Below are positions 16,362 to 45,032 of a DNA stretch of 64,000 nucleotides, piece after piece. Each line of letters opens with the position of its first letter. Position 1 is the stretch's first letter. The position numbers were made by a program, and so were the translations under genes. Below the pieces are notes generated by a model that searched no databases, was not told the DNA's origin, and saw only the letters and a list, made by a program, of their open reading frames with translations. The DNA lies in the NCBI GenBank assembly GCA_045863395.1, contig BTVJ01000017.1, forward strand, positions 32,001-96,000, given 5' to 3'. This DNA comes from Myxococcales bacterium (GTDB lineage: Bacteria; Myxococcota_A; UBA9042; JABWCM01; BTVJ01).

Positions 16362-17702
16362 CTACCGGGCCTCGCCACGGCGGCGCGCCACCACCGCCAG
16401 GCCGAAGCCGAACATCAGGAGCGCCAGGGTGCCCGCGCCGGCGTTGCCCGCCGCGGCGCTGCACCCGGAGGAGCTGCCGTCGCCCGCGGAGCCGGTCACC
16501 GACCCGCCGCCATTGGCGCCGCTGCCGCCGCTGCCGCCGCTGCCGCCGCTGCCGCCGCTGCCGCCACTGCCGTTGCCGCCCCCCTCGGAGTCGTCCACGC
16601 TCGCCGAGCCGCCGCCGGAGCCGCCGCCCGAGTCGCCGTCGCCGCCCTTCGGGCCGCCCGTGGCCTCACCGGACTGCGGATCCTCTGAGCTCGACGGATA
16701 GCCGCCACCACCGCCGGCCTCGCCCCAGCCGCCGCCGAAGTCGGAGACGCACATGCCCGAGGTAGCAGGCCGCTCGTCGCAGGCGCCGGCCTCCTCGCAC
16801 GAGATACCGCCCGTATCCGTGTCGCCGCTCTCCTCGGGGGCCGCCCCCGCGCTTCCGCCGGAGCCGCTGCTCCCGCCACCGGCGCTGCCCGTGCTCGTGC
16901 CGCTGCTGCCACCACTGCTGACGGGCTCGTCACACTCACAGGGCGGGCACTCACAGCTCGTCCCCTCCTCGCAGGCGCAAGTGGCGCAGGCGCAGTCCGT
17001 GCCGCCCCAGCCGAAGGAGCAGTGGTAGCCGCTCGGGCAGTCCGCGTCCGCCACGCACTCGGTGGGCTTCAGGGAGCAGTAGGACCCGATGACCTCGCAG
17101 CCCGAGGTCTCCTCCGCACTGCCACAGTCGTCGCAGACGCACTCGCCACAGTCCTCGCCGGGCTCGCAGGCCGGGCACGTGCAGCCACACCCGCCCGACG
17201 CCCAGCAGCTCTCGACGGTCACGCACTCGAAGCCGTCGCCGCACTCCACGTCCGTCGAGCATGGGGCGGGCTCGCACACCTTGATCGTCTCCTCGTCGCA
17301 GGGCTCGGGCTCGGGAGCCACCTTGCAGTCACAAGGCTCGCAGGTCTCGCCCGGAGCGCAGTCGGGGCACGCGCAGGCCGGGCCGGCGTTCGCGCAGCCG
17401 ATGGTCTGCTCGGTGCACACCATGGCGGCGCCGCAATCCGCGTCCGTCTCGCACTGATTGGTCCAGCTCCAGCCGCCGCCCGAGACGCACGCCATCTCGC
17501 CGTTGCCCGGGTCGCACTCACCGCACTCGGTGCCCGGCTCGCAGGGTGGACAGCCACCCGAGACCAGCATGCAGACCTCGCCCTTGGCGCAATCGGCGTC
17601 CGTCGTACACTCGCTGTCGGGTTCGGGCATCGGGGCCGCCTGGGCCGCATAGGCCATGGCTGGCGCGAGCAGGAAGGTTGTCATCATCAAGAGTCGCCGC
17701 AT
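16362..17702 (-). CDS. Cys-rich surface protein with Gly/Ser linker and MYXO-CTERM-type sorting signal (446 aa)
   Basis: GGAGG RBS; signal peptide; CxxCxPGxxCxxCxC repeats; C-terminus [24 protein letters not shown]. Confidence 0.82.
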
Positions 17703-17806
17703 CTCGCACCTCCAGGCCGCCCGAAGGTGGCAGCCACGATTACACACATGCACGGGGAGCCCTGCGCTCCCACGGCCGCGTGGCGGCGCCGTGCACAGGA
17801 AGACAC

Positions 17807-17822
17807 AGCAACCGCCGTGCCA
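17807..17822 (-). promoter_or_regulatory. Sigma54 (-24/-12) promoter TGGCACGGCGGTTGCT
   Basis: Matches the TGGCACG-N4-TTGCW consensus, 105 nt upstream of the 17702 ATG. Confidence 0.8.
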
Positions 17823-17841
17823 TCGCAAGATCATGCTTCAT

Positions 17842-30467: not shown

Positions 30468-31820
30468 TCAGGCGCCCTCGCGCCGCAGGTCGTACCTCTT
30501 GATCTTGGCGTAGAGGGTCGTCCGGTCGATGTCCAGCAGCTCCGCCGCCTTGCTGATGTTCCAGCCCTCCCGGTCGAGCACCGCCTTGATGTGCGCCTGC
30601 TCCATGGACGCCAGGGAGTCTCCCGCCGGCGGGCGCACCGCCGCCGCCTGGACGAAAGGCAGGTCGTCGGCACGAATCAGCGGGGGGCGCCCGACGACCA
30701 TCGCGCGCTCTACGGCATTCGCAAGCTCGCGCACGTTCCCGGGCCAGTCGTGGGCCATCAGCCGCTCGACGGCGGCCGGCTCGAAGTCGGTGATGTGCTT
30801 GTCCATCTGCAACGAGAGCTTCCGCAGGAAGTGCCGCGCCAGCAGGGGAATGTCGCTCCGACGTGATCGCAGCGGGGGCACGGTCAAGGTGAACACGTTG
30901 ATCCGGTAGTAGAGGTCCTGCCGGAACCGCCCCTGGGCGACCAGCTCCTCCAGGTTCTCGTTGGTGGCGCACACCACCCGAAAGTCCACGTGGATCTGCT
31001 GGCTGCCGCCCACCCGTGTCACCTCGTGGGTCTCCAGCACGCGGAGCAGGTCCACCTGGGTCTTGGGGCTGATGGTGCCGATCTCGTCCAGGAACAGGGT
31101 GCCCCCGTCGGCCAGCTCGATCTTCCCCTTTCTCCGATACTGGGCGCCCGTGAAGGCGCCCTTCTCGTGACCGAACAGCTCGCTCTCGAGCAGTGTCTCA
31201 GGCAACGCACCACAGTTGACGGGCACCATTGGCAGATAGCGCCGCCGGCTGTTGGCGTGAATCGCCAGAGCCACGAGCTCCTTCCCCGTGCCGCTCTCTC
31301 CACGAATCAACACCGTGGCGTCCGTCTCCGCCACCTGCTGGATCAGCCCCAGCAGCCGATTCATCTCGGGGCTCTCTCCGACGATGGTGCTCGCGCTGCG
31401 CAGCTCGTCGATGGTCTCCCGGAGCTGCGCGTTCTCGGACTCCAGCCGCTTCTGCTCCAGGGCGCGGCGCACCAGGTGGCTGAGCTCGTCCGGGTCGACG
31501 GGCTTGGTCACATAGTCGAAGGCCCCCTGTTTGAGCGCCCGGACGGCCGTGTCCACCGACGCGAAGGCCGTGATCATGATCACGACGGTGCCAGGAGCCG
31601 ACTTGTGGATGTGCTCCTGCAGCTCGATGCCGTCCATGCCGGGCATCTTGATGTCGAGGAGCGCCACGTCCCAGGCAGACTCCTGAATGGCGTGCAGCGC
31701 GTCGGTGGCGTTGGCGGCCGTGCGGACGCGGTAGCCGTCCTTGCGGAACCAGCTCGACAGCGAGTCCCGCACGGACAGCTCGTCGTCCACGATCAGCACA
31801 CTCCCCAGCTCCTTGCGCAT
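30468..31820 (-). CDS. Sigma54-dependent (NtrC-family) response regulator
   Basis: REC (LIVDDE, DIKMPGMDG, KP), GESGTGKE, GAFTGA, RQDLYYRIN, Fis-type HTH. Confidence 0.95.
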   Translation of the reverse strand: MRKELGSVLIVDDELSVRDSLSSWFRKDGYRVRTAANATDALHAIQESAWDVALLDIKMPGMDGIELQEHIHKSAPGTVVIMITAFASVDTAVRALKQGAFDYVTKPVDPDELSHLVRRALEQKRLESENAQLRETIDELRSASTIVGESPEMNRLLGLIQQVAETDATVLIRGESGTGKELVALAIHANSRRRYLPMVPVNCGALPETLLESELFGHEKGAFTGAQYRRKGKIELADGGTLFLDEIGTISPKTQVDLLRVLETHEVTRVGGSQQIHVDFRVVCATNENLEELVAQGRFRQDLYYRINVFTLTVPPLRSRRSDIPLLARHFLRKLSLQMDKHITDFEPAAVERLMAHDWPGNVRELANAVERAMVVGRPPLIRADDLPFVQAAAVRPPAGDSLASMEQAHIKAVLDREGWNISKAAELLDIDRTTLYAKIKRYDLRREGA

Positions 31821-31829
31821 GGTGCCTCC

Positions 31830-33443
31830 TCATGCCCCCGCGGGCGCCGGCGGCTGCCGCGGCAGCCTCACCTTGAACGTGGTGCCCACTCCCACACGGG
31901 TCTCCACGTCGATGGACCCTCCGTGCCGGTGAACGATGCCGTAGACCACGGCGAGCCCCAGGCCGACGCCGCTCTCCTGGTTCTTCGTCGAGAAGAACGG
32001 CTCGAAGATGTGGGGGAGCACCTCCTCGGGGATGCCGCCGCCCGTGTCCTCGACCTCCAGCCGGAGCCCCTCGTCGTCGCCAATCAATCTCACGAAAAGC
32101 CGCCCATCGGAGGACCCGTTCATGGATTCGAGGGAGTTCATGAGCAGCGCGAGCAGCGTCTGCTGCACCTGATCGGCGTCCGCGACGATCACGTCGTCGC
32201 CCTCGGCTTCGAGGGACAGGGAGACACCCGCCATCTCCGCCTTGTGCCGCACCAGCATCACCGCCCGCTCCGCGACCTCCTTCACGGGGACGGGCGCGAG
32301 CTTCGCCCCCGACTGGCGTGCAAAGACCAGCAGGTTGCGCACGATGTCGCCGCAGCGCATCGTCTCCTTCTGGATGGCGCCCACGTACCGCAGGACCTCC
32401 TCCAGCTCCTCGGGGGGCACGCCTTCTCTCAGGCTGCGCTCCACCAGCTTGGCGTAGGTCAGGACCCCGGCGAGAGGGTTGTTGATCTCGTGGGCGACCG
32501 TCGCCGACAGCTTGCCGAGGGAGGCCATCTTCTCCATGTGCACGATCTGCCGCTGGACCCGCCCGAGCTCGTCCGTCTTGGCGGCCACCTCGTCCTCCAG
32601 CTTGCGGGACCAGCCCGTCAGCTCCGCCCGTGCTGCCCGGAGGTCCGTCATCATCTGGTTGAAGGCCCGCGCCAGGGCGCCCAGCTCCCCCGGCGTGGAG
32701 ATCTCGATGGGCGTGACCAGGTCCCCCTGCGCGACGCGGCGCGTGCCGTCCCACAGCGCCAGCACTGGGCGCCGCACCATGCGGATCACGAGGAGCACCG
32801 AGATCCCCCCGACGAAAAGCAGCATGACCGCGACGAGCCACACCCACTGGAGCCGCGTCGCCGCCACGGCCTCGTCGACGGCCGCCATGGACATGCGAAC
32901 GTCCAGCACGCCGAGGACGCTCTGGTCGGCTGGGTGGGCGTGGCAGGCGGCGCTTGCGCACTGGGCGCTGTTGGAGATGGGATCGATGACCCCGAGGAGC
33001 CGCTCGCCGCTCGGCGCCCGGTACACCCGCATGCGGTCGGACAGCGGCGGGCTGCGCAGTGGCTCCCGCTGGTCGTGGCAGATCACGCAGGCCTCGGCCT
33101 TCAGGTCCACCTGGGCCCCGATCTCCGCGTCGTCGGCCGAGAAGACGATCACCCCCTGCTTGTCGTAGATGCGGATGCCCGCCACCCCCGGGGTCTCCGC
33201 CACGAAGCGGATGATCTGGTGCACGTCCTCCTTGCGGTTGAGCATCATCCCGTAGGTGGTCGCTCGCTTGACCAACTCCCCGGTGCGGGTGGCGAGCTGG
33301 TTGATGGTCTCGGTCCAGCGCTCCGACGTGGTGAAGTGGGAGATGGCGCCGAAGGCGACGAACACGACGCCCATGGCGGTGAGCAGGAACGCCAGCAGGC
33401 GCACGCTCAAGCTGGACAGCAGACCTCGGACGCCACGTCGCAT
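31830..33443 (-). CDS. Sensor histidine kinase with periplasmic c-type heme motifs and HAMP domain
   Basis: Two TM helices flank CVICH (33075-33089) and CASAACH (32940-32960); AHEINNPL H-box, DTGGGI, PFFSTK, GVGLGL. Confidence 0.92.
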   Translation of the reverse strand: MRRGVRGLLSSLSVRLLAFLLTAMGVVFVAFGAISHFTTSERWTETINQLATRTGELVKRATTYGMMLNRKEDVHQIIRFVAETPGVAGIRIYDKQGVIVFSADDAEIGAQVDLKAEACVICHDQREPLRSPPLSDRMRVYRAPSGERLLGVIDPISNSAQCASAACHAHPADQSVLGVLDVRMSMAAVDEAVAATRLQWVWLVAVMLLFVGGISVLLVIRMVRRPVLALWDGTRRVAQGDLVTPIEISTPGELGALARAFNQMMTDLRAARAELTGWSRKLEDEVAAKTDELGRVQRQIVHMEKMASLGKLSATVAHEINNPLAGVLTYAKLVERSLREGVPPEELEEVLRYVGAIQKETMRCGDIVRNLLVFARQSGAKLAPVPVKEVAERAVMLVRHKAEMAGVSLSLEAEGDDVIVADADQVQQTLLALLMNSLESMNGSSDGRLFVRLIGDDEGLRLEVEDTGGGIPEEVLPHIFEPFFSTKNQESGVGLGLAVVYGIVHRHGGSIDVETRVGVGTTFKVRLPRQPPAPAGA

Positions 33444-36077: not shown

Positions 36078-36503
36078 TCACACGTCGGGGACCGTCGCTA
36101 CGACCTGATAGGCAAAGCGCGCCGTGTGCGACGCGAGGTACAGCGTCTCGAGCGCGGACTCCACGGCGAGGGTGATCCCGCCGCCGGCGTCGGGGACGAA
36201 GAGCGCACGCGCGCTCACGACGCGCACGCGGATGTCGGACTGGACAATCGGCGAGACGCCCGACGGATGCACCGTCACCGACGCGCGCAGCGTCGACGGG
36301 TCGAGCGTAGACGGGAGCGAGGGAGCGGTCGGCACCAGGAATCGAAGGGTGCCTGCGACGCGCGCCGGGCTGCCGGTCGTGTCGGTGGTCACGTCGAAGT
36401 GACCCGCGAGGATGACCATGCGGGTCGCGGATCCGTCGGCGCCGCGTCCGCGAACTTCGACCAGGGGCTGCGCCTCCGCGCCACGAGAGATGAGCTGAGC
36501 CAT
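36078..36503 (-). CDS. Hypothetical protein (141 aa, beta-rich)
   Basis: ATG-started ORF downstream of and co-oriented with the redox operon, with plausible composition. Confidence 0.55.
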   Translation of the reverse strand: MAQLISRGAEAQPLVEVRGRGADGSATRMVILAGHFDVTTDTTGSPARVAGTLRFLVPTAPSLPSTLDPSTLRASVTVHPSGVSPIVQSDIRVRVVSARALFVPDAGGGITLAVESALETLYLASHTARFAYQVVATVPDV

Positions 36504-36588: not shown

Positions 36589-37314
36589 CTACCCCCGCGC
36601 CGGCCGCAGCAGGAGCTCGCGGACCAGGTCGAGGTGGCGGCGGCCGCCGACGAGGCTCGCCAGGTCGCGGAGGTTCGCCAGCGGCTCGCCCCCGTCGGCC
36701 ATGGTGGGGCCCACCTCGGTGGCCATGAGGAGCTCCATGGCCACGCGCCGCTGGAAGTGGTGGGCGTCGATGCGGGCCTGGTGCTCCGCCTCGCGGGCGC
36801 TCATCGTCTTGGCCTTCCCCGCCGGCGCCAGGTCGAGGAGCCAGCCGTCTCCGTAAGGGTCACGCACCAGCAGGCCCGGATCGCCGAGGAGCGCCGCGTT
36901 GCCGTTCGTCACGCGCCCCGCGGTAGGAGATGCCAGCTCGACGACCCCCTCCGGCGTGTCCACGGTCACGCACAGGGCGCCGTCCGCCACGGGGGCGCCC
37001 GGCCTCGGGAGAGAGACCGCCGCCGGCTCCGCGAGCAGGTCGGCCAGCATGGAGTCGATGCCCACCCGCAGGCCACCGTCGGCCCACGGCTTCAGCCAGA
37101 AGTGCCCCGCCGCGTAGTCCCGGTCGGCGGGGAAGCGCATCCCGCTGCGCCCCCTCGACGCCGGCGCCGCCCTCCCCCGCAGCGCTGCGTCCAGCGGGCA
37201 GTTGTCGCAGTCCAGGGCACGATCACAGGGCCGCCACGCGAGCACACCGGCGCCCACCCACACGCACGGTGTGTCCTGAGGAAGCCACCCTCGATCCGTC
37301 GCTTTGGAGCTCAT
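36589..37314 (-). CDS. GcvH-like protein A: N-terminal Cx12Cx5Cx2C motif, lipoyl Lys replaced by Glu, C-terminal GPTMADGG
   Basis: H.W....GGLRVGID, ELASPTAGRV...N, LLVRDPYGDGWL (H-protein fold); GGAGG RBS. Confidence 0.85.
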   Translation of the reverse strand: MSSKATDRGWLPQDTPCVWVGAGVLAWRPCDRALDCDNCPLDAALRGRAAPASRGRSGMRFPADRDYAAGHFWLKPWADGGLRVGIDSMLADLLAEPAAVSLPRPGAPVADGALCVTVDTPEGVVELASPTAGRVTNGNAALLGDPGLLVRDPYGDGWLLDLAPAGKAKTMSAREAEHQARIDAHHFQRRVAMELLMATEVGPTMADGGEPLANLRDLASLVGGRRHLDLVRELLLRPARG

Positions 37315-37333
37315 GGCGCCCTCCGCGGCCGCC

Positions 37334-38908
37334 TCAGTTGTGGCAGCTCGAGCAGTCATCGTCGGTCATCCCGAAGGCCTTGGTCCCCTCGTGGCAGCTC
37401 CCGCACAGCTCGCCCCGGTTCATGCGCTCGTGGGTGATCGTCCCAGACAGCGGCGCGCCGGGCTTCGTCAGACTCCAGTCTGTCTTGTGGCAGGCGCCGC
37501 ACTGGGCCCCCTCCACCGTCCCCATGTGGCTCTCGTGGCTGAAGGTGACCGCCCCGGGGCTGTCGCCAGTCACCGGGAAGGTGTAGTCGGCGGGCACCCG
37601 CAGGTCCCCAGCCTCCGACGGCGTCCCCACGACCCCGTCGCCCAGTCCGCGCGCCTCCGGCGAGCCGGCCATCGTGACCAGCACCACGCCGATGGCGAGC
37701 AGGCCCCACAGCCCGGCGATGCCCCAGCCGTTGGCGGTGGGCATGCCGCGGACGCCCAGGGCCGGCAGCATGGCGGGCGGGCGGGCGTGCTTCATCTCGC
37801 TCTGCGGGAAGACGTGCAGGTACTTGACCGCTGCCGCGAAGGCCGTGAAGCCGACCGCGCACAGGGCCAGCGTGACGCCGATCTCATAGATGCTCGGCAG
37901 ATACGCGACCCCGCTCGATCCGACCATCCCGGTGATCGACACGTTGAGCCGGTTGACGATGAAGCCCATGACCGTCAGCACCGCCGCGAAGAACATGGCG
38001 TGGCGGTTGCGACGCACCCGCGGCATGGCGAAGAGCACCATCGGGAGCACCATGCCGAGCCCGATCTCACCCCAGAAGAGCACCGCCTCCGGCGTGAACT
38101 GGAACACGAGCGGCAGGTTGCCCCGGCCCCACAGGTCCTGGAGCTTCCACATGCCGAGCACCGCGAGCACCACCACGATGACGCGGCTCATGCCGGCGAG
38201 CAGGTCGTCCTCGAGCCGGTGCCCGAAGGCGCGGTGGCTCAGGTAGGACTCGACGATGGTCATGGCCAGGCCGGCGGCCACGGCGGAGATGAAGAAGAAC
38301 ACCGGCAGCCACGGGGTGTACCAGAGGCCGTGGAGCTTGTCCGGCACGATGACGTAGAGCGTGCCCAGCGACGACTGGTGCATCATGGACAGGAGCACGC
38401 CCAGGATGACCAGCGGGATGTAGATGGTCTGCATGGCCTTGAGCGGCCTCTTCCAGCCGAGGCGCTCCAGCACGACGGGGCTGAACTCCAGGGCCAGCAC
38501 CGTGGTGTAGAGCATGACGCACCAGGCGACCTCGAACATGACGCTGTGGGGGTTCCACATGACGAGCGGGTGCCAGATGTCCCACGGCTGGCCGAGGTCG
38601 AAGAGCAGACCCACACACACCAGCACGTAGCCGAGGAAGGCCGTAAGCACCGCCGGGCGAGCGATGGGCTCGTACTTCTCGATGTGGAAGAGGTGGACCG
38701 CCGCGGCCACCGTGAAGCCACCGGCGGCGAGGCCGACGCCGACGAGCACGTCGAAGCCGATCCAGAGCCCCCAGGGGAAGGCGTCGCTGAGATTGGTCGA
38801 GGCGCCGAGGCCGAAGCCGTAGCGCAGCACCGCCGAGACCGCCCCGAAGAGCAGAATCAGGGCGAGCAGGCTTTGCCAGATCGTGAGCTTACCGCGTGGA
38901 GTCGTCAT
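37334..38908 (-). CDS. NrfD/HybB-type membrane subunit fused to a C-terminal triheme c7-type cytochrome (524 aa)
   Basis: GLGASTNLSDAFPWGLWIGFDV, DLGQPW, SVMFEVAWCVMLY, MHQSSLGTL, NRLNV; then VTFSHESH...CGACH...CGSCH...CSSCH. Confidence 0.9.
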   Translation of the reverse strand: MTTPRGKLTIWQSLLALILLFGAVSAVLRYGFGLGASTNLSDAFPWGLWIGFDVLVGVGLAAGGFTVAAAVHLFHIEKYEPIARPAVLTAFLGYVLVCVGLLFDLGQPWDIWHPLVMWNPHSVMFEVAWCVMLYTTVLALEFSPVVLERLGWKRPLKAMQTIYIPLVILGVLLSMMHQSSLGTLYVIVPDKLHGLWYTPWLPVFFFISAVAAGLAMTIVESYLSHRAFGHRLEDDLLAGMSRVIVVVLAVLGMWKLQDLWGRGNLPLVFQFTPEAVLFWGEIGLGMVLPMVLFAMPRVRRNRHAMFFAAVLTVMGFIVNRLNVSITGMVGSSGVAYLPSIYEIGVTLALCAVGFTAFAAAVKYLHVFPQSEMKHARPPAMLPALGVRGMPTANGWGIAGLWGLLAIGVVLVTMAGSPEARGLGDGVVGTPSEAGDLRVPADYTFPVTGDSPGAVTFSHESHMGTVEGAQCGACHKTDWSLTKPGAPLSGTITHERMNRGELCGSCHEGTKAFGMTDDDCSSCHN

Positions 38909-39674
38909 GGCTCTCCTCCTGATGGCCGTTGGTCTCGTGCTCGCGGCGCGTGCGGGCAAGCTCGTCGCGGCGCTTGATGATCCACCAGATTCCGAAGAGG
39001 CCCACGCCGGAGACGCTCACGACGTTGGGCAGCTTGGACAGGATGTTCCAGGTCAGGGCGGGGTACGGGTCGTTCTGGACGCCCGTGCGGAAGCCGATCT
39101 GCTCGAAGGGCACGTCCGAGATGAACAGGACGCCCGTTCCGCCGGCCTCCTTCTCGCCGTAGATGTGGTTGACGTAGACGTCGGGGGACTCGGCGAGGCG
39201 CTTGCGGGCCTCGGCGAGCAGCTCCTCGCGGTCTCCGAAGACGATGGCGCCGGTCGGGCACGCGGACGTGCAGGCGGGCTCCTCGCCGCGGCTCACGCGC
39301 TTCTCGTAGCACATGATGCACTTCTGCACCGCGGGCACCTTCGCGTCCCACTCGTACTTGGGGATGTTGAAGGGGCAGCCGAGCATGCAGTAGCGGCACC
39401 CGATGCACTTGGGCTCGTCGTAGACCACCGCCCCCTCCGGGGTCTTGTGGAGCGCCCCGACCGGGCACACCGACACGCAGGCCGGCTCCACGCAGTGCAT
39501 GCACGAGTGGCGGACGTGTACGCCGCGCCGGTTCTCGACGGTGAGCCAGGTGGTGGCGGAGAGCTTCCGGGCCCCGTCCTCCCGCGGGAGGTCGTTCGAC
39601 TCCTTGCACGCCCACACGCAAGCCTCACAGCCGATGCACTTGGTCAGATCCACCAGGATTGCGGCCGAGCTCAT
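38889..39674 (-). CDS. HybA/FdnH/NrfC-like 4x[4Fe-4S] polyferredoxin with C-terminal TM helix and no Tat signal
   Basis: CIGCEACVWAC, CMHCVEPACVSVCP, CIGCRYCMLGCP, CIMC...PACTSACP; IYGEKEAGGT; hydrophobic tail. Confidence 0.92.
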   Translation of the reverse strand: MSSAAILVDLTKCIGCEACVWACKESNDLPREDGARKLSATTWLTVENRRGVHVRHSCMHCVEPACVSVCPVGALHKTPEGAVVYDEPKCIGCRYCMLGCPFNIPKYEWDAKVPAVQKCIMCYEKRVSRGEEPACTSACPTGAIVFGDREELLAEARKRLAESPDVYVNHIYGEKEAGGTGVLFISDVPFEQIGFRTGVQNDPYPALTWNILSKLPNVVSVSGVGLFGIWWIIKRRDELARTRREHETNGHQEESHDDSTR

Positions 39675-40396
39675 GACAGCCTCCCTTCGCGCGCGCTGGC
39701 GCCATGCACGGTCTCCTTCGTGCCGTGGAACAGGTCTCCGCTCAGGCGCTCCCAGGCCGGCTCGTCCAGGCAGTCAGCCAGAGCGTCCGCCGGCGCGCCG
39801 CCGTCGAGCATGGTCGCGCCCACCGTGGAGGGGGGCAGCATGGCGAGCACCGACTCCCGAAGCCGGTGCAGCTCCCCGGCGACCCATGCGCGGGCGTCCT
39901 CACCGACCGTCATGGCCGGCAGCGCCTTGTTCAGATCCCGCGGGCGGACCTTGTAGAGCCAGGTCAGGGCCTCGGGCAGCTCGCGGTAGGCCGCGACCTC
40001 CGTGTTGACCTCCTCGACGACGGCCCCCATCGGTGCGCGCAGGGTGAGCGCTCGGCCTCCACTCTGGAAGGTGAAGAGCGGCGCGCCGGCCTCGATGACC
40101 GTCCCCGGCGGGTGGAGCTCGACGCCGTCGGGCGTTCCCAGCGCCATCAGGGCCACCGGCGACGCGCCGACGGACACCAGGCCGTCCGCCTCGACGCGCA
40201 GCCAGGTGTGGGTCGGGTCCATGAAGATGTCGCCCGGCAGCGCGGAGGGGTCGACCTCGGCCCGCGGGCGAGTGCGTGCGAGCTCCGCCGCGTTGACCCG
40301 CGCCGCCGCCAGGGTCCGGCGGTACGTGGCCCGCTGGACGAAGAAGTCGATGGTCAGGAAGAGCAGGATGACTGTGACGATGAGCAAGGCAACCAT
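39671..40396 (-). CDS. GcvH-like protein B: N-terminal TM anchor, lipoyl Lys replaced by Gly, C-terminal GATMLDGG
   Basis: GGAGGAG RBS; MVALLIVTVILLFLTIDFFV; HTWLRV, TLRAPMGAVVEEVN, WLYKVRP. Confidence 0.85.
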   Translation of the reverse strand: MVALLIVTVILLFLTIDFFVQRATYRRTLAAARVNAAELARTRPRAEVDPSALPGDIFMDPTHTWLRVEADGLVSVGASPVALMALGTPDGVELHPPGTVIEAGAPLFTFQSGGRALTLRAPMGAVVEEVNTEVAAYRELPEALTWLYKVRPRDLNKALPAMTVGEDARAWVAGELHRLRESVLAMLPPSTVGATMLDGGAPADALADCLDEPAWERLSGDLFHGTKETVHGASAREGRLS

Positions 40397-40444
40397 GGTT
40401 CTCCTCCAGTCAGGCGTGCGACCGCCGCACGTGACCCCCACCTG

Positions 40445-40460
40445 TGCACGGACCGGGCCA
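40445..40460 (-). promoter_or_regulatory. Sigma54-like promoter TGGCCCGGTCCGTGCA for the gcvH-like B/ferredoxin/NrfD-c7/gcvH-like A operon
   Basis: GG-N10-GC spacing with TGGC and TGCA, 49 nt upstream of the ATG. Confidence 0.55.
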
Positions 40461-40528
40461 CCGCCTCGGAGGTGCCAGAGGACCGCTCTCCATGCGGAGT
40501 TCCGCTCGCGGCCCTCCTGATCGCGCGC

Positions 40529-40670
40529 TGTTGGATTCCTCGACACGCCTCAGGAGCGCCAGGCGCCCTGGAGCACACCCCGAGCCGCACGCGCGGACTT
40601 TCTTCAATACATTTCAACCACTTGCGAGCGACCGCCGAGAATCGCCACACCGCTGTCGAGAAATCCAACG
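40529..40670. promoter_or_regulatory. Pair of inverted 17-bp boxes TGTCGAG(G/A)AATCCAAC(A/G) (40529-40545 on -, 40654-40670 on +) flanking an IHF-like site TTTCAACCACTTG (40612-40624); putative enhancer (UAS) region
   Basis: The two boxes match at 15 of 17 positions in inverted orientation, and each is an imperfect palindrome. Confidence 0.65.
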
Positions 40671-40746
40671 CAATTTGGGGGCTCTGCGACACCTCCGCGA
40701 TTGCCCCTCCGCGCCAATGCTGGCCTTCGCCACGCTCGGAGGGCTG

Positions 40747-40762
40747 TGGCACGCCCCTTGCC
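40747..40762 (+). promoter_or_regulatory. Sigma54 promoter TGGCACGCCCCTTGCC for gcvH-like C
   Basis: Near-perfect TGGCACG-N4-TTGC, 62 nt upstream of the ATG at 40824. Confidence 0.75.
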
Positions 40763-40823
40763 ATCACCTGGGCCCGAGGTTGGCGGGGGCGCCCTCAGGA
40801 GACCGAACGGAGAGGAGGCTGAC

Positions 40824-41570
40824 ATGAAGACCGCAGGAACAGAGGTGACGTGGATGAAGACGAGTCTCGCTGCTCTGGCCGCCGTGGCGCTGCTCGTGCT
40901 GGCGCTGCCTGTCCTCGCCGCCGCCTCCATCGCGGCGCGCATCGTGGTGCCGGTGGTGGTGCTCGGCGCGGTGGCGGTGCTGCTGCTGGTGCCGTCGCTC
41001 CGGCGGCGGGTGGTGCTCGGTGAGGACGAGATGCAGTACAGGGGCCTCCGCGTGCCCCTGGAGGGCCTTCTACACTCCGCACACACGTGGGTGAAGGAGC
41101 GCCGCGGGAGCCTGGTGGCGGGAGTCGATGACCTGATGCTGCGGGTGCTCGGTCCGGTGGACCGCGTGGAGCTGCCCGCGGTGGGGACCGTGCTCGCGGC
41201 GGGGGCCCCGATGGCGCGCCTGCACGGCGGCGGGCGGTCCATCACGGTGCGCGCCCCGGTGGCCGGGCGCGTCGAGGCGACCAACGACCGCCTGGACAGG
41301 GACCCCTCGCTGCTCGTGCGGTCTCCCTACCGAGACGGCTGGGCCGTGCGGATCGCGCCGTCGGAGCAGCCCACCGGCCTGCTGAGCGGCACGCGGGCGA
41401 CGCGATGGTTCGCTTCGGAGGTGGACGGGCTCCTGTCGATGCTGTCCGGGCCCACGCTCGGCCACGCGACCATGCACGACGGCGGCGCTGTGACGGACGC
41501 GCTCCACGAGGACCTGGACGACCTGACCTTCCGCCGCGTCAGCGCGCGCTTCTTCGGCGGCGAGTGCTGA
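40824..41570 (+). CDS. GcvH-like protein C: N-terminal two-TM hairpin, lipoyl Lys replaced by Gly, C-terminal HATMHDGG
   Basis: GAGGAGG RBS (alternative start 40854); HTWV, AGVDDL, VELPAVG, TVRAPVAGRVEATN, LLVRSPYRDGWAVRI. Confidence 0.87.
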   Translation: MKTAGTEVTWMKTSLAALAAVALLVLALPVLAAASIAARIVVPVVVLGAVAVLLLVPSLRRRVVLGEDEMQYRGLRVPLEGLLHSAHTWVKERRGSLVAGVDDLMLRVLGPVDRVELPAVGTVLAAGAPMARLHGGGRSITVRAPVAGRVEATNDRLDRDPSLLVRSPYRDGWAVRIAPSEQPTGLLSGTRATRWFASEVDGLLSMLSGPTLGHATMHDGGAVTDALHEDLDDLTFRRVSARFFGGEC

Positions 41571-43818
41571 GCAGGAGCAGGGTCAGCAGCCAGGCCAAGG
41601 TCGAGGGCGCCGGCGAGGGGCCCACGCCGCAGCCTCCCGAGGACCCCCCTCCCGGCGCCGCTCCCCCCCCATCGCTGCTCTTCCCCCCATCGGGCACCGT
41701 GTCCACGGAGCCACCGTCCGCGGCCCCGGCTCCCGCATCCGTCACGGTGACAACGGAGTCCGCCCCGCCCGGTTGAGAGTCGTCCGCCCCCCCTCCCGAA
41801 TCCTTGGGGGCACCGGCGTCGGGCGCCCCGGAGTCCTCTGCGTCGTCAGACGGACCCACCGCCGAGTCCCCGCCGGGAGCTCCGGTGTCGTTGATCGCGA
41901 TATCCAGGCTGTCATTGCCGGTGTCGTCCTCGCCCGTGTCGCCCGCGGTGTCGCCAGCGGCCCCGGCGTCATCCCCGCCCGCGTCGTCCCCACCCCCTGC
42001 ATCCCAGACGCCGGCGTCTTCCCCACCCCCAATGCAGGCGCCGTTCTCGCAGGTGCCCGCGCCGCACGAGCCACACGAGCCACCGCACCCGTCGTCGCCG
42101 CACTCCATGCCCGTGCACGCCGGCACGCAGGGGCAGCCGCCCAGGTCCGGGCAGGCGCCGCACACGTTGTCGCAGCAGTCGCCGTACCCGAAGCACTCCT
42201 CGTCGCAGTAGCACCCGCTCGGCGCCTGGTTGCCGCACTGGTCCTTGCACCCGCCGGTCACGTCCACGCACGCATCGCCCTCGCACTGCTTGCCGGGCCC
42301 ACAGACCCCGCAGGAGCCCCCGCACCCGTCCGGGCCGCACGCCTTGCCGTCGCACTTCGGCGTGCAGGGACCGCACCCCGAGACGCCGGGGCAGTCCTCG
42401 CACACCTTGTCGCAGCAGTCGCCGTAGCCGAAGCAGAGGTCGTCGCAGTAGCAGCCCACGCTGGACTGGCCGCCGCACTTGCCCGCACAGAACCCACCCG
42501 TCACGCAGGCCCCGCCCGAGCACCACTGGTCCGCCCCGCAAGTGCCGCAGGTGCCGCCGCACCCGTCGTCGCCGCACGACTTGCCGCCGCAGCTCGGCGT
42601 ACACGCCTCGCACACGCCCCCCTTGCAGGCCGTACCCGGCGCGCACGCCCCGCAGGAGTCTCCGCACCCGTCGTCGCCGCACGCCTTGCCGGCGCAGCTC
42701 GGCACGCAGCAGCCCTTGGTGCCTGGGCAGGCCTTGCACACGCCCTCGCAGCAGTCCCCATAGCCGTGACACTCGTTGTCGCACCAGCACCCGGACGGCG
42801 CCTGCCCGCCGCAGTGGCCCTGGCACTCGCTGGACCCGCAGGCGCCTCCCTCCAGGCACACCTGGCCCGCCGGGCAGGTCCCGCAGGAGCCCCCGCACCC
42901 GTCGTCGCCACACTGAATCCCCTTGCACTTCGGCTGGCACGCCACGCACTGACCGGTCGCGGGGATACAGTCGTCCGTGCCCGAGCAGCTCCCGCAGGTT
43001 CCCCCGCACCCATCGGGGCCGCACGTCTTGCCCTTGCAGGCGGGGGTGCAGCACTGGAAGCTGGCGCACACCTGGAAGGGGCCGCAGGTGCCGCAGTCGA
43101 CCCCGCAGTAGGAGCCGCACGCGATCCCCTCGCAGCTCGGCTGGGCCGGGCACGCGCCACACGGGAAGCCACAGTCCAGCTCACAGGCGCTCGCACAGAA
43201 CTCATCCCAGGCATCGGTGCAGCAGGTCGGGTACTTGGCGCAGACACACGCCTCGCACGGGCACCCCCCGCAGCCGGCCTTCGTCGAAGGCAGACACGGC
43301 TTGGGCAGCGGGAGGCACTTGAAGAGCCCATCCACGCACTCGGTGCCCGGCCCGCAGGTGCCACAGGAGAACCCCTGCGGGTCCTTGCCGCACTCCTTGC
43401 CGCCGCACTGGGGGGTCGCACAGACCCCCGTGTCCAGGCACACGCCGTCCCCGGGGCACGCGCCGCACCCACCGGGACACTGTGGGCTGCACGCGCCGCC
43501 GGCGCACGCCGCCGGACACCCGCCGCAGGCGATGGCGTGGGTCCCACTCGGATCGGTCGCGCCCTTCGGCTGCCCGCAGTCGTAGTAGCCGAGGGGGTTC
43601 CACCCGCAGGAGGGGAACACCCCCGCGCAGTCCAGACAGAAGAGGTTGCTGCCCTCGCACCAGAGGTTGCGCCCGTAGGGGTCACAACACCCCTCCAGGG
43701 TCACCCCGGCGCAGCCGCCTGGCACGCTCGGAGTCAGCGCCCCCTTGCACTCGATGACGACGGGGGCCGCCGCGGCGGACAGCGGCACCAGAAGGGCGAG
43801 GAACAGCAACGCTCGCAT
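41539..43818 (-). CDS. Cys-rich MYXO-CTERM surface protein with CGxDGCGGxCGxC repeats and three somatomedin-B-like modules (759 aa)
   Basis: Signal peptide MRALLFLALLVPLSAAA; CxxxCGxQxxxGCxCDxxCxGYGDCC three times; tail SSGGCGVG-hydrophobic-RRRR. Confidence 0.85.
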   Translation of the reverse strand: MRALLFLALLVPLSAAAAPVVIECKGALTPSVPGGCAGVTLEGCCDPYGRNLWCEGSNLFCLDCAGVFPSCGWNPLGYYDCGQPKGATDPSGTHAIACGGCPAACAGGACSPQCPGGCGACPGDGVCLDTGVCATPQCGGKECGKDPQGFSCGTCGPGTECVDGLFKCLPLPKPCLPSTKAGCGGCPCEACVCAKYPTCCTDAWDEFCASACELDCGFPCGACPAQPSCEGIACGSYCGVDCGTCGPFQVCASFQCCTPACKGKTCGPDGCGGTCGSCSGTDDCIPATGQCVACQPKCKGIQCGDDGCGGSCGTCPAGQVCLEGGACGSSECQGHCGGQAPSGCWCDNECHGYGDCCEGVCKACPGTKGCCVPSCAGKACGDDGCGDSCGACAPGTACKGGVCEACTPSCGGKSCGDDGCGGTCGTCGADQWCSGGACVTGGFCAGKCGGQSSVGCYCDDLCFGYGDCCDKVCEDCPGVSGCGPCTPKCDGKACGPDGCGGSCGVCGPGKQCEGDACVDVTGGCKDQCGNQAPSGCYCDEECFGYGDCCDNVCGACPDLGGCPCVPACTGMECGDDGCGGSCGSCGAGTCENGACIGGGEDAGVWDAGGGDDAGGDDAGAAGDTAGDTGEDDTGNDSLDIAINDTGAPGGDSAVGPSDDAEDSGAPDAGAPKDSGGGADDSQPGGADSVVTVTDAGAGAADGGSVDTVPDGGKSSDGGGAAPGGGSSGGCGVGPSPAPSTLAWLLTLLLLSTRRRRSAR

Positions 43819-43850
43819 GGAGACCTCTCGGCGGCTCCCCCCGAGATGAA

Positions 43851-45032
43851 TCAGGGGGCGACACACGTGTTGATGGGGATGTTGCACTTGTCGCCGGGCG
43901 GGCAATCGGCGTCCTTGAAGCACGGGACGTGACCGTCGACCTGGAGCTTGCCCGGGGCGAAGCTGAACACGACCGCCTCGACGCAGCCTGGGGCGAGCTG
44001 TACCGAGTCCACCGTCCTGCGATAGATGTCCAGCGTTGCGAATCCAGACACCCCGAACTCCAGCATGGTCTTGACCAGATCGGCGGGGATGGAGAACTCG
44101 CCGGTGTCCGGCACGTCGCACTTCAGCGTCACCGGCGAGTTGCCGTGCTGGTCCACGTTGAGCGAGATGAACACCCGCGCGCCCGTGTCCAGGGTCGGCG
44201 GATCCCAGTGGAATGCCAGGGGCTCGCCCTTGACCATGTTGATCACCTGCTCGGGGAGGACCAGCGTCTCCGCGCCGACGCCGTGCAGGGTGAAGCCGGG
44301 CAGCTCGTCCCCTGCTGCCGAGACGGTGATCGCGGCGCCGGGCTGGTACATGGGGAACGGGACGTCCACCTTGGCGTAGGTCTTGACCCCGCCAGGCTCC
44401 AGCGTCGCCGGCACCAGCAGGCCGTCCACCGTGACCGTGCCGACGGACTTGTTCTCGGGGTACGGGATGCACGTACCGTCGTGGTTGCACAGATCTCCGG
44501 GGCCGCACGGGTCCTCGCAGAACGGGTTGACCTTCTGCAGGAGCTGGCAGCCGTCCTTCTCTTCGACGAGCTGGAGGACGGTCAGCGGGATGACCCCCTC
44601 TGCGACCTCCCCGGTGATGGAGGCATAGAAGTCCCAGTGGGCGACCTCGAACACGCCAACCCGCTTGCCGAGGGGGCAGGGACCTGCGAGGGTGGGGCCA
44701 CCGCCCGCGTCCTGCTCGCCACCCGTGTCGGCCGTGTCATCCGTACCGCCCGTGTCCGCCTGGGTCCCGGTGTCCGTCACGCCTCCCGTATCCGTCCCAC
44801 CGCCCGTGTCCGTCGCGCCGCCCGTGTCGGTCACGCCGCCCGTGTCCTTCTCCGCCCCCGTGTCACCACCGCCGTCGGGTGTCCCCCCCACGTCCGCGGG
44901 TCCCGAGTCGCCCCCGCCCGTCACGTCGGCGCCACCGCCGCCCGCATCGCCACTACCACCCCCGCCGTCGCCGTCGCCGTCCGCGCACCCGCCGACCAGC
45001 AGCCCGGCCGCGATCAGAGCTGTCCATCTCAT
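43851..45032 (-). CDS. Lipoprotein with (GGxTDT)n linker and Cys-containing beta domain
   Basis: LLVGG-C lipobox; GGAGAG RBS; 18-bp repeats at ~44720-44865. Confidence 0.78.
   Translation of the reverse strand: MRWTALIAAGLLVGGCADGDGDGGGGSGDAGGGGADVTGGGDSGPADVGGTPDGGGDTGAEKDTGGVTDTGGATDTGGGTDTGGVTDTGTQADTGGTDDTADTGGEQDAGGGPTLAGPCPLGKRVGVFEVAHWDFYASITGEVAEGVIPLTVLQLVEEKDGCQLLQKVNPFCEDPCGPGDLCNHDGTCIPYPENKSVGTVTVDGLLVPATLEPGGVKTYAKVDVPFPMYQPGAAITVSAAGDELPGFTLHGVGAETLVLPEQVINMVKGEPLAFHWDPPTLDTGARVFISLNVDQHGNSPVTLKCDVPDTGEFSIPADLVKTMLEFGVSGFATLDIYRRTVDSVQLAPGCVEAVVFSFAPGKLQVDGHVPCFKDADCPPGDKCNIPINTCVAP

Follow-up and report, generated by a model that had tools for sequence, protein, structure and literature searches.

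In the stretch of 64,000 nucleotides from a Myxococcales bacterium analysed here (the window, numbered from its first letter), five genes at 36.6-41.6 kb include three that encode proteins related to GcvH, the H protein of the glycine cleavage system. These three, referred to below as p1, p2 and p3, lie with genes for a 4Fe-4S iron-sulfur (Fe-S) protein and an NrfD-type membrane protein, the order on the minus strand being p2, Fe-S, NrfD, p1, with p3 divergent. None of the three retains the lysine that carries the lipoyl group in H proteins, and all of them carry a C-terminal tail built around a DGG motif. The reading that we tentatively prefer, with somewhat less than even confidence, is that they are putative docking or regulatory partners, made from a GcvH fold without its lysine, of the Fe-S/NrfD quinone module and of a nearby pair consisting of a histidine kinase with haem motifs and a sigma-54-dependent regulator. 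The case for this is argued from the missing lysine, the conserved tail and transmembrane (TM) anchors, a specific gene linkage, sigma-54 promoters and the existence of fusions to receiver domains.

The original prediction held that all three proteins lack the lipoyl lysine, and alignment with the organism's own GcvH (hairpin VESTK) bears this out: the column in question is occupied by E137 in p1 (36949-36951), G164 in p2 (40055-40057) and G178 in p3 (41232-41234), with arginine following immediately in p2 (R165) and p3 (R179). The hairpins as first read, VDTPEGVVELASP, FQSGGRALTLRAP and LHGGGRSITVRAP, contain no lysine in any of the three cases, and a phmmer alignment of p3 to the solved H proteins 1onl and 3a8i gave the same register independently. 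Across a 151-row MAFFT alignment of the family the old lysine column reads G 58, D 28, E 16, A 14, N 8, S 7, R 5 and K 4, so a lysine at the hairpin tip, absent from p1, p2 and p3, is present in 4 of 151 relatives. The residue after this column is R in 118 rows and K in 12, and that before it is G in 107; a hairpin tip of G-[GDE]-R (GGR in both p2 and p3) takes the place of V-K-A/S, a pattern from which the Cys4 forms, including p1 with its PEG, depart. That none of p1, p2 and p3 can be a lipoyl carrier of the canonical type is supported. The one genuine gcvH of the genome (L001:1486-1875, minus strand) scores 157.5 bits on PF01597, and the true gcvT-gcvH-gcvP operon, in which GCV_T, GCV_H and GDC-P occur together, is on another contig (C66).

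The rest of the domain is recognisably that of an H protein. Pfam GCV_H (PF01597) matches p1, p2 and p3 with E-values of 2.7e-14, 6.2e-10 and 9.8e-15, and the flanking motifs that had been described as largely retained, namely HxW, GxD(D), (A/S)PxxGxVxxxN and PYxxGW, are indeed kept, while the scores against TIGR00527 (53.2, 30.7 and 48.5 bits, respectively) lie well short of its equivalog cut-off of 115.85. An AlphaFold2 model of the p3 domain (predicted local distance difference test (pLDDT) 88, predicted template-modelling score 0.83) superimposes on 1onl with a template-modelling score of 0.91 and a root-mean-square deviation of 1.5 (Foldseek), and on 1dxm, the pea H protein, over 129 residues spanning model residues 2-132, with Z 18.9 and a deviation of 1.4 (VIA-align); the barrel of p1 is modelled with pLDDT above 90.

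Beyond the barrel, TMADGG in p1, TMLDGG in p2 and TMHDGG in p3 fall at one and the same alignment column, with predicted helices after them. It had been proposed that the motif TMxDGG is conserved as a whole; of this the DGG part stands as more than a chance agreement, being near-invariant far beyond the three paralogues, but T and M turn out to be merely preferred, and the motif is better written [TVA][LM]xDGG. A pattern search located DGG in the C-terminal half of 142 of the best 150 family representatives (DGG is part of the profile used for the ranking, and this biases the set slightly toward the motif); the other eight show variants such as EGG, DGR or LDG, or have no tail, and in the 151 aligned rows DGG stands at this column in 97-99% of cases. 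At the three positions preceding DGG (n = 142) the commonest residues are T/V/A (61/39/27), L/M/A (66/39/18) and Q/A/P (54/40/24). The accompanying suggestion that the C-terminal extension is absent from true GcvH proteins needs trimming: the first helix past the barrel corresponds to the C-terminal helix that H proteins normally have, because the superposition on 1dxm runs as far as model residue 132, and what is specific to the family is a tail of about 40 residues, present in p1, p2 and p3 alike, that comprises the motif-bearing loop and then two short helices, the final helix being of the form W/F...FF. A tail-only profile, which had been recommended as a check, matches exactly p1, p2 and p3 in the 8.8-Mb genome.

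Within the folded part of the models the DGG motif is the sole stretch of low confidence (pLDDT below 50 at model residues 143-147 in p3 and 202-207 in p1), a pattern that fits a loop which may be flexible or ordered by a partner. The original argument that the motif points to a functional site gains from the fact that DGG is conserved across the family and far beyond the three paralogues. Further positions that the family conserves and GcvH does not are, in the numbering of the p3 open reading frame (ORF), D143, D144, G168, R179, A233, W236 and W277, in addition to D260-G261-G262 itself. When the tail profile was run against proteins of 34-125 aa, the 45 matches obtained were mostly on contigs of roughly 1-2 kb and often included a partial GCV_H domain, and no stand-alone tail family was seen in this size range (longer fusion partners were not searched); the few matches on long contigs (P0211, P0212, P0215 and P0218) have the look of C-terminal fragments of family members. 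No Pfam or NCBIfam family matches the tail, the Cys4 motif of p1 or the periplasmic part of the kinase.

The family is large. A word-based homologue search with p3 proved too insensitive (three matches), and an exhaustive search was used instead, in which a profile made from 11 domains was compared with 1.84 billion representative proteins (50%-identity clusters); this gave 12,726 matches at E<=1e-3 and 1,186 at E<=1e-30, so that the family consists of at least 1,186 such clusters at the stricter threshold. A search for related loci with a 3-row alignment returned four loci, all from Myxococcota. The N-termini of the best 150 representatives have two TM helices in 66 cases, one in 62, none that could be detected in 18 and a Cys4 motif in 4. 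In a tree of 175 rows (quick search, midpoint root), p2 belongs to a one-TM clade (36 rows; Shimodaira-Hasegawa-like approximate likelihood ratio test (SH-aLRT) support 99), p3 to a two-TM clade (72 rows; SH-aLRT 97) and p1 to the Cys4 forms, near the canonical outgroup, with the single-copy forms making up a further one-TM group. Because each falls in a different subfamily, p1, p2 and p3 are ancient paralogues, all of which have kept the tail, and not decayed copies. The four cysteines of p1 recur without exception in all 12 Cys-type members; the AlphaFold2 model gives this N-terminus a pLDDT of 40-56, too low for any statement about a metal site. Two tandem Cys4-type members (L038:5780-6940 and 6944-7885) each have a second Cx5CxxCxFD copy in an insert before the barrel.

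As to distribution, the extended form occurs in 11 of 107 genomes of the window's class and the tail-only profile finds it in 9 of 301 genomes of the phylum, while look-alike clusters with GCV_H in the ESM Atlas come from Thermodesulfobacteriota (1,046 members), Bacteroidota, Gemmatimonadota, Acidobacteriota and others. In the Acidobacteriota cluster the GcvH-like part is fused to receiver domains, and two such fusions of a receiver domain with a lysine-less GcvH-like domain stand in tandem in G006 (L027:168-935 and L027:907-2163), the second of them also having an N-terminal TM helix and no DGG. A different architecture is seen in P0007, a protein of 1,391 aa in which three GCV_H domains are combined with an FAD-linked oxidase, a 4Fe-4S dicluster domain and two CCG domains, resembling GlcD/GlcF or HdrD; its similarity to the family profile is confined to the barrel and does not extend to the tail. 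Database entries for the family are named either "glycine cleavage system H (lipoate-binding) protein" or "hypothetical". No description of a lysine-less GcvH-like family linked to NrfD or sigma-54 was found in the full-text literature (subscription journals not covered), and as far as that coverage goes both the family and its gene cluster are undescribed.

The linkage of extended GcvH-like genes to genes for Fe-S, NrfD, kinase and regulator proteins is specific. A metagenome scan seeded with Cys4 forms yielded 80 loci, which were classified using the family profile and the window proteins as queries. The 38 loci with an extended GcvH-like gene include NrfD in 17, an Fe-S protein in 16, the kinase in 16 and the sigma-54 regulator in 18 (13, 12, 13 and 15, respectively, if only the 23 loci of at least 8 kb are counted), whereas the 42 loci that have only a canonical-length GcvH match include NrfD once (in L072, whose H-like ORF is truncated at the end of the contig) and the kinase and regulator never. 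The order GcvH-like, Fe-S, NrfD, kinase, regulator is found in L064, L076, L108 and L045, while in L048, L055, L061, L066, L080, L082, L101 and L112 the GcvH-like gene is divergent from regulator, kinase, NrfD and Fe-S; in the majority of systems there is just one GcvH-like protein and no Cys4 form. The Myxococcota relatives G036 and G035 preserve the gene order of the window: G036 has p3, p2, Fe-S, NrfD (with c7) and p1 on one strand, and G035 has Fe-S (with a twin-arginine translocation (Tat) signal), NrfD, a one-TM form and a Cys4 form, with the kinase and a p3 orthologue 6 kb further on. The kinase and regulator of the window match their counterparts in these clusters at 370-584 bits, the regulator and the kinase core scoring best as AtoC/ZraR and AtoS/ZraS. 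Between the first TM helix and the HAMP domain, 15 of 15 orthologous kinases, as well as those of the window and of G035, carry CxxCH followed some 42 residues later by Cx4CH, a pair that suggests a putative dihaem c sensor domain.

Upstream of p3, which also has a strong ribosome site (GGAGAGGAGG) before its ATG, there is one of only two perfect sigma-54 sites in the 64-kb window. The second of these, TGGCACGGCGGTTGC at 17808-17822 on the minus strand, is just inside the 5' end of an ORF on the same strand (16362-17834), and is either a chance match or a sign that this ORF starts further down. Of 17 family genes, 11 have a site with at most one mismatch 65-77 nt ahead of the start (0.018 such sites would be expected per 250 nt), and in G036 and G035 the p3 orthologues are preceded by such sites too. 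When the 600 nt ahead of the domain are considered, 26 of 43 extended ORFs have one, as against 1 of 43 canonical ones, the former count including many closely related loci and hence overstating independence, although several lineages are represented. Among Fe-S genes only 1 of 17 (that of L045) has such a site within 300 nt upstream. Because the sites precede GcvH-like genes but only this one Fe-S gene, the GcvH-like gene in the divergent arrangement looks like a sigma-54-controlled target and the sensor operon does not, and from its proximity we infer that the cluster's own regulator activates the GcvH-like genes. In L045 itself a perfect sigma-54 consensus is situated inside the 3' end of the GcvH-like gene (7495-7509), 72 nt before the Fe-S gene, and would separately drive the Fe-S, NrfD, kinase and regulator genes.

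Some transcript data bear on these genes. Metatranscriptome contigs from three studies cover p3, and a contig of 2,087 nt (38551-40637) spans p2, the Fe-S gene and the start of the NrfD gene; in such contigs strand and level are not readable and DNA carry-over is possible, and contig depths were not used for ranking. The pieces at p3 start at 40784, 40814 and 40852, all downstream of the promoter, and none of those listed crosses it; since these starts vary, they are at most a weak hint of promoter use. A gap in cover at 36905-37105, inside p1, carries no weight.

Regarding the membrane, one-TM members begin with a hydrophobic helix (e.g. MTVLLVL) followed by a K/R-rich stretch, which predicts an external N-terminus and an internal C-terminus, while p3 has a helical hairpin followed by RRR and p1 has no signal. 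From the positive-inside rule, together with the receiver-domain fusions, we infer that the GcvH-like domains face the cytoplasm. The NrfD protein has 11 predicted TM helices, with a 10-TM core like that of HmcC and HybB, and carries a C-terminal periplasmic c7-type trihaem domain with three CxxCH motifs; its N-terminus is placed inside and the c7 domain outside because its even loops contain 18 K+R and its odd loops 4. The Fe-S protein has no Tat signal and ends in a TM helix followed by KRR. Most of its orthologues likewise have no Tat signal and keep this tail anchor (TM, then KRR or NRR), as in periplasmic proteins of the HybA/FdnH type, and clear RRxFF Tat signals are present in a minority (G035 (L026:1473-2591), L040 and L047). 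Against the NCBIfam models HmcB and HmcC the Fe-S and NrfD proteins score 256 and 319 bits (cut-offs 420 and 550), and against HybA and HybB 224 and 294 bits (cut-offs 263 and 450). Neither HmcA, HmcF nor a hydrogenase (HybOC) was seen among the ORFs scanned near the locus, to which this search was confined. A three-chain complex prediction (NrfD core 1-410, Fe-S protein and p2, with 13-row alignments) gave 0.51, 0.14 and 0.25 against a mark of 0.32, and counts neither way.

If the preferred reading is correct, the GcvH-like proteins would be located in the cytoplasm, mostly tethered to the membrane, beside the Fe-S/NrfD quinone module. The [TVA][LM]xDGG loop, together with the pair of helices that follows, would form a putative partner-binding element, and the old lipoyl hairpin (now G-[GDE]-R) would, along with this tail, serve protein contacts instead of cofactor chemistry. 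The cluster's own sigma-54 regulator would drive the GcvH-like genes, and their products may feed back on the sensing module, or transmit from it, in a manner resembling accessory proteins that modulate the very two-component system by which they are induced (zraP-zraSR and cpxP-cpxRA offering the analogy).

Several observations weigh against this. The DGG loop is of low confidence in both AlphaFold2 models, and its placement is not fixed by them. The Fe-S protein should, judging by homology and its tail anchor, be periplasmic, on the side opposite the GcvH-like domains, so that contact would need to be made through the cytoplasmic loops of NrfD, TM helices or the kinase. In 10 of the 23 long loci NrfD was not seen within 7 kb; the 14 kb read in G036 showed no kinase; and in the window itself the kinase and regulator are 3 kb from p1, behind three unrelated-looking genes (a 141-aa ORF, an AHSA1-like gene and a methyltransferase). 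Candidate sigma-54 sites upstream of p2 (40446-40460 and 40463-40477, minus strand) had to be rejected, as they have two mismatches and the window contains 62 sites of that quality against 63 expected. Finally, given the K found at the old lysine column in 4 of 151 rows, and one residue later in 12, a few members may yet be lipoylated; the G036 orthologue of p3 (L025:7363-8112), for example, has a lysine exactly at the lipoyl column in VQRGKREV, a context unlike the E-S-V-K-A of true H proteins.

The same neighbourhood could be explained by supposing that the three proteins are structural, electron-handling subunits, forming the cytoplasmic head of an Hmc/Nhc-like transmembrane complex in place of an HmcF/HdrD-type subunit, with the Cys4 site of p1 likely holding an Fe-S cluster or zinc. 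We consider this unlikely. The tight order of p2, Fe-S, NrfD and p1, with overlapping or near-abutting genes, would suit it, as would the best matches of the neighbours to HmcB and HmcC (256 and 319 bits), the invariance of the p1 cysteines (12/12) and the existence of lysine-less barrel-sandwich domains in NqrA and RnfC, to which the structural matches are weak (Z 3.7-4.0). Yet those scores fall far short of the respective cut-offs (420 and 550); a Cys motif is missing from p2 and p3, and the typical system has a single GcvH-like protein that is not of the Cys4 form; the cluster comes regularly with a kinase and a sigma-54 regulator and without any catalytic subunit; and there is no evident transmembrane route for electrons, NrfD proteins not being known to carry haem b. 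A decidedly unlikely option is that the DGG loop and the emptied cavity of the H-protein fold serve to bind a metal or small ligand, or are the site of a new modification, in which case the proteins would be sensors or carriers of, for example, a quinone head group, free lipoate or a nucleotide. H proteins do have a cavity that shelters the lipoyl arm, and a near-invariant D-G-G with varying flanks is typical of a loop shaped for a ligand; the arginine beside the old lysine column (118/151) and the further conserved residues D143, D144, G168 and W236 (p3 numbering) could be seen in the same light. However, conserved loops rich in glycine are just as characteristic of tight turns where proteins meet, and the tail matches no known ligand-binding motif or family in Pfam or NCBIfam.

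There is also a slim chance that these are system-specific assembly or export helpers, holding a signal-less Fe-S protein at the membrane as redox-enzyme maturation proteins do. The Fe-S protein and most of its orthologues, tail-anchored like periplasmic HybA/FdnH types and yet without a Tat signal, might well require such help, and the p2 stop overlaps the Fe-S start; but the systems in which the Fe-S protein does bear a Tat signal (G035, L040 and L047) keep their GcvH-like genes, one lineage has its GcvH-like gene outside the Fe-S operon, transcribed separately from a sigma-54 promoter of its own, and the receiver-domain fusions point to signalling. As for decaying or neutral gcvH duplicates with no function of their own, the database name "glycine cleavage system H protein" and the loss of the catalytic lysine might bring them to mind, but the idea is scarcely credible in view of at least 1,186 clusters with full-length conservation, three subfamilies that have stayed distinct across long evolutionary distances, new features that are themselves conserved (the tail, the TM anchors and Cys4), fixed neighbours, own promoters and presence in RNA libraries.

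The docking or regulatory reading can be taken a step further, to a proposal that we regard as possible but doubtful, namely that the locus is one instance of a widespread and unrecognised redox-sensing device in which the DGG loop acts as a docking switch. The Fe-S/NrfD module, having no catalytic subunit, would signal to the dihaem kinase the state of either the quinone pool or a periplasmic electron carrier, and the sigma-54-induced, lysine-less H-fold proteins would act as cytoplasmic transducers or feedback brakes, so that an ancient cofactor-carrier fold would have been turned into a signalling adaptor. If such a system does sense the quinone pool or extracellular electron flow, it would represent a new kind of respiratory control. 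Thousands of proteins entered in public databases as "glycine cleavage system H (lipoate-binding) protein" are unable to bind lipoate in the known manner, and glycine cleavage or lipoate use will therefore be overcalled in any metabolic reconstruction that includes them. In addition, the family marks a conserved cluster, found in several phyla, of Fe-S protein, NrfD, haem-motif kinase, sigma-54 regulator and one to three GcvH-like proteins, and the near-invariant DGG loop and the G-x-R hairpin provide precise residues for mutation.

The features of the locus are collected in the table below. The window has a G+C content of about 71%, and the closest relatives sharing these genes are metagenome-assembled genomes labelled Myxococcota. 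For all three GcvH-like genes the likely start is internal to the longest ORF (M16 in p1, M51 in p2 and M42 in p3), and the overlap of the p2 stop with the Fe-S start has the form ATGA. Directly downstream of p1, the 141-aa ORF mentioned above (36078-36503, minus strand) has no Pfam or NCBIfam match and is covered by contigs from RNA libraries. On the other side of the cluster, a 989-aa ORF (41539-44508, minus strand) is rich in repeated CGxDGCGGxCGxC-like Cys/Gly units, and has a signal-like N-terminal region and no Pfam match at E<=0.001.

Table. Positions in the window of the GcvH-like genes and of the features associated with them.
Feature	Position	Strand	Description
p1	36589-37314	-	Soluble GcvH-like protein, 241 aa from M16; longest ORF to 37359
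p1 parts		-	N-terminal Cys4 motif CxWxxAGx6Cx5CxxC, lysine-less barrel, tail with TMADGG at 36688-36705
NrfD/HmcC/HybB-like membrane protein	37334-38908	-	524 aa from M18; Pfam NrfD and Cytochrome_C7
HmcB/HybA-like 4Fe-4S protein	38889-39674	-	261 aa; Pfam Fer4_11
p2	39671-40396	-	One-TM-anchored GcvH-like protein, 241 aa from M51; longest ORF to 40546; TMLDGG at 39797-39814
p3	40824-41570	+	Two-TM-anchored GcvH-like protein, 248 aa; longest ORF from 40701; TMHDGG at 41469-41486
Sigma-54 -24/-12 site	40747-40761	+	Perfect consensus TGGCACGCCCCTTGC, 63 nt upstream of p3 ATG
Sensor histidine kinase	31830-33443	-	TM, periplasmic stretch with CVICH and CASAACH, HAMP, HisKA, HATPase
Sigma-54-dependent response regulator	30468-31820	-	REC, AAA+, HTH_8; AtoC/ZraR-like

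It remains to set these proteins beside systems already described. With GcvH proper (PF01597/TIGR00527) they share the fold, the HxW, GxD, (A/S)PxxGxVxxxN and PYxxGW motifs and the C-terminal helix, but they differ in having no lipoyl lysine, in scoring below the TIGR00527 cut-off, in their added TM helices or Cys4 motif and DGG tail, and in their neighbours, which are Fe-S and NrfD genes instead of gcvT and gcvP. The barrel-sandwich domains of NqrA and RnfC are likewise lipoyl-like barrels that have no cofactor lysine and that are peripheral in a quinone-linked membrane complex; the p3 model matches 4u9o with Z 4.0, 8ahx_C with Z 4.0 and 8a1u with Z 3.7 (VIA-align), values in the range of a common fold only, and as the sequence family and the partners also differ, this is a matter of analogy and not of membership. 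LbpA, from sHdr sulfur oxidation, and GcvH-L, from Staphylococcus and Streptococcus, are also H-fold paralogues that have been recruited elsewhere, to non-glycine roles, but they are reported to keep the lysine and to be lipoylated (PMC6067878, 10.64898/2026.10.01.755906, PMC12440151), while p1, p2 and p3 have no conserved lipoyl lysine, cannot be lipoylated in that way and have different neighbours. The GcvH-L structure 5a35 matches the p3 model with Z 12.9 (VIA-align) and E 5e-7 (Foldseek), and neither sHdr genes nor a sirtuin/macrodomain operon appear among the Pfam matches of the ORFs at 28.5-45.3 kb, the part of the window scanned. For the Fe-S and NrfD proteins, HmcB/HmcC of the Desulfovibrio Hmc complex and HybA/HybB of the electron-transfer arm of E. 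coli hydrogenase-2 are the best NCBIfam matches, and the tail anchor of the Fe-S protein is shared with them, but all scores are below the equivalog cut-offs, the c7 trihaem domain is fused to NrfD and the Fe-S protein has no Tat signal. Finally, zraP-zraSR, cpxP-cpxRA and pspA-pspF are known cases of accessory proteins that are induced by, and act on, their own control system, and their layouts, like those described here, place a small accessory gene with its own promoter beside, or divergent from, a kinase-regulator operon, the promoter here being of the sigma-54 type. ZraP and CpxP are periplasmic proteins with a fold unrelated to that of the H protein, whereas the present clusters have an accessory protein that is H-protein-like and predicted to lie in the cytoplasm, next to a sensor operon that encodes an Fe-S/NrfD module as well.

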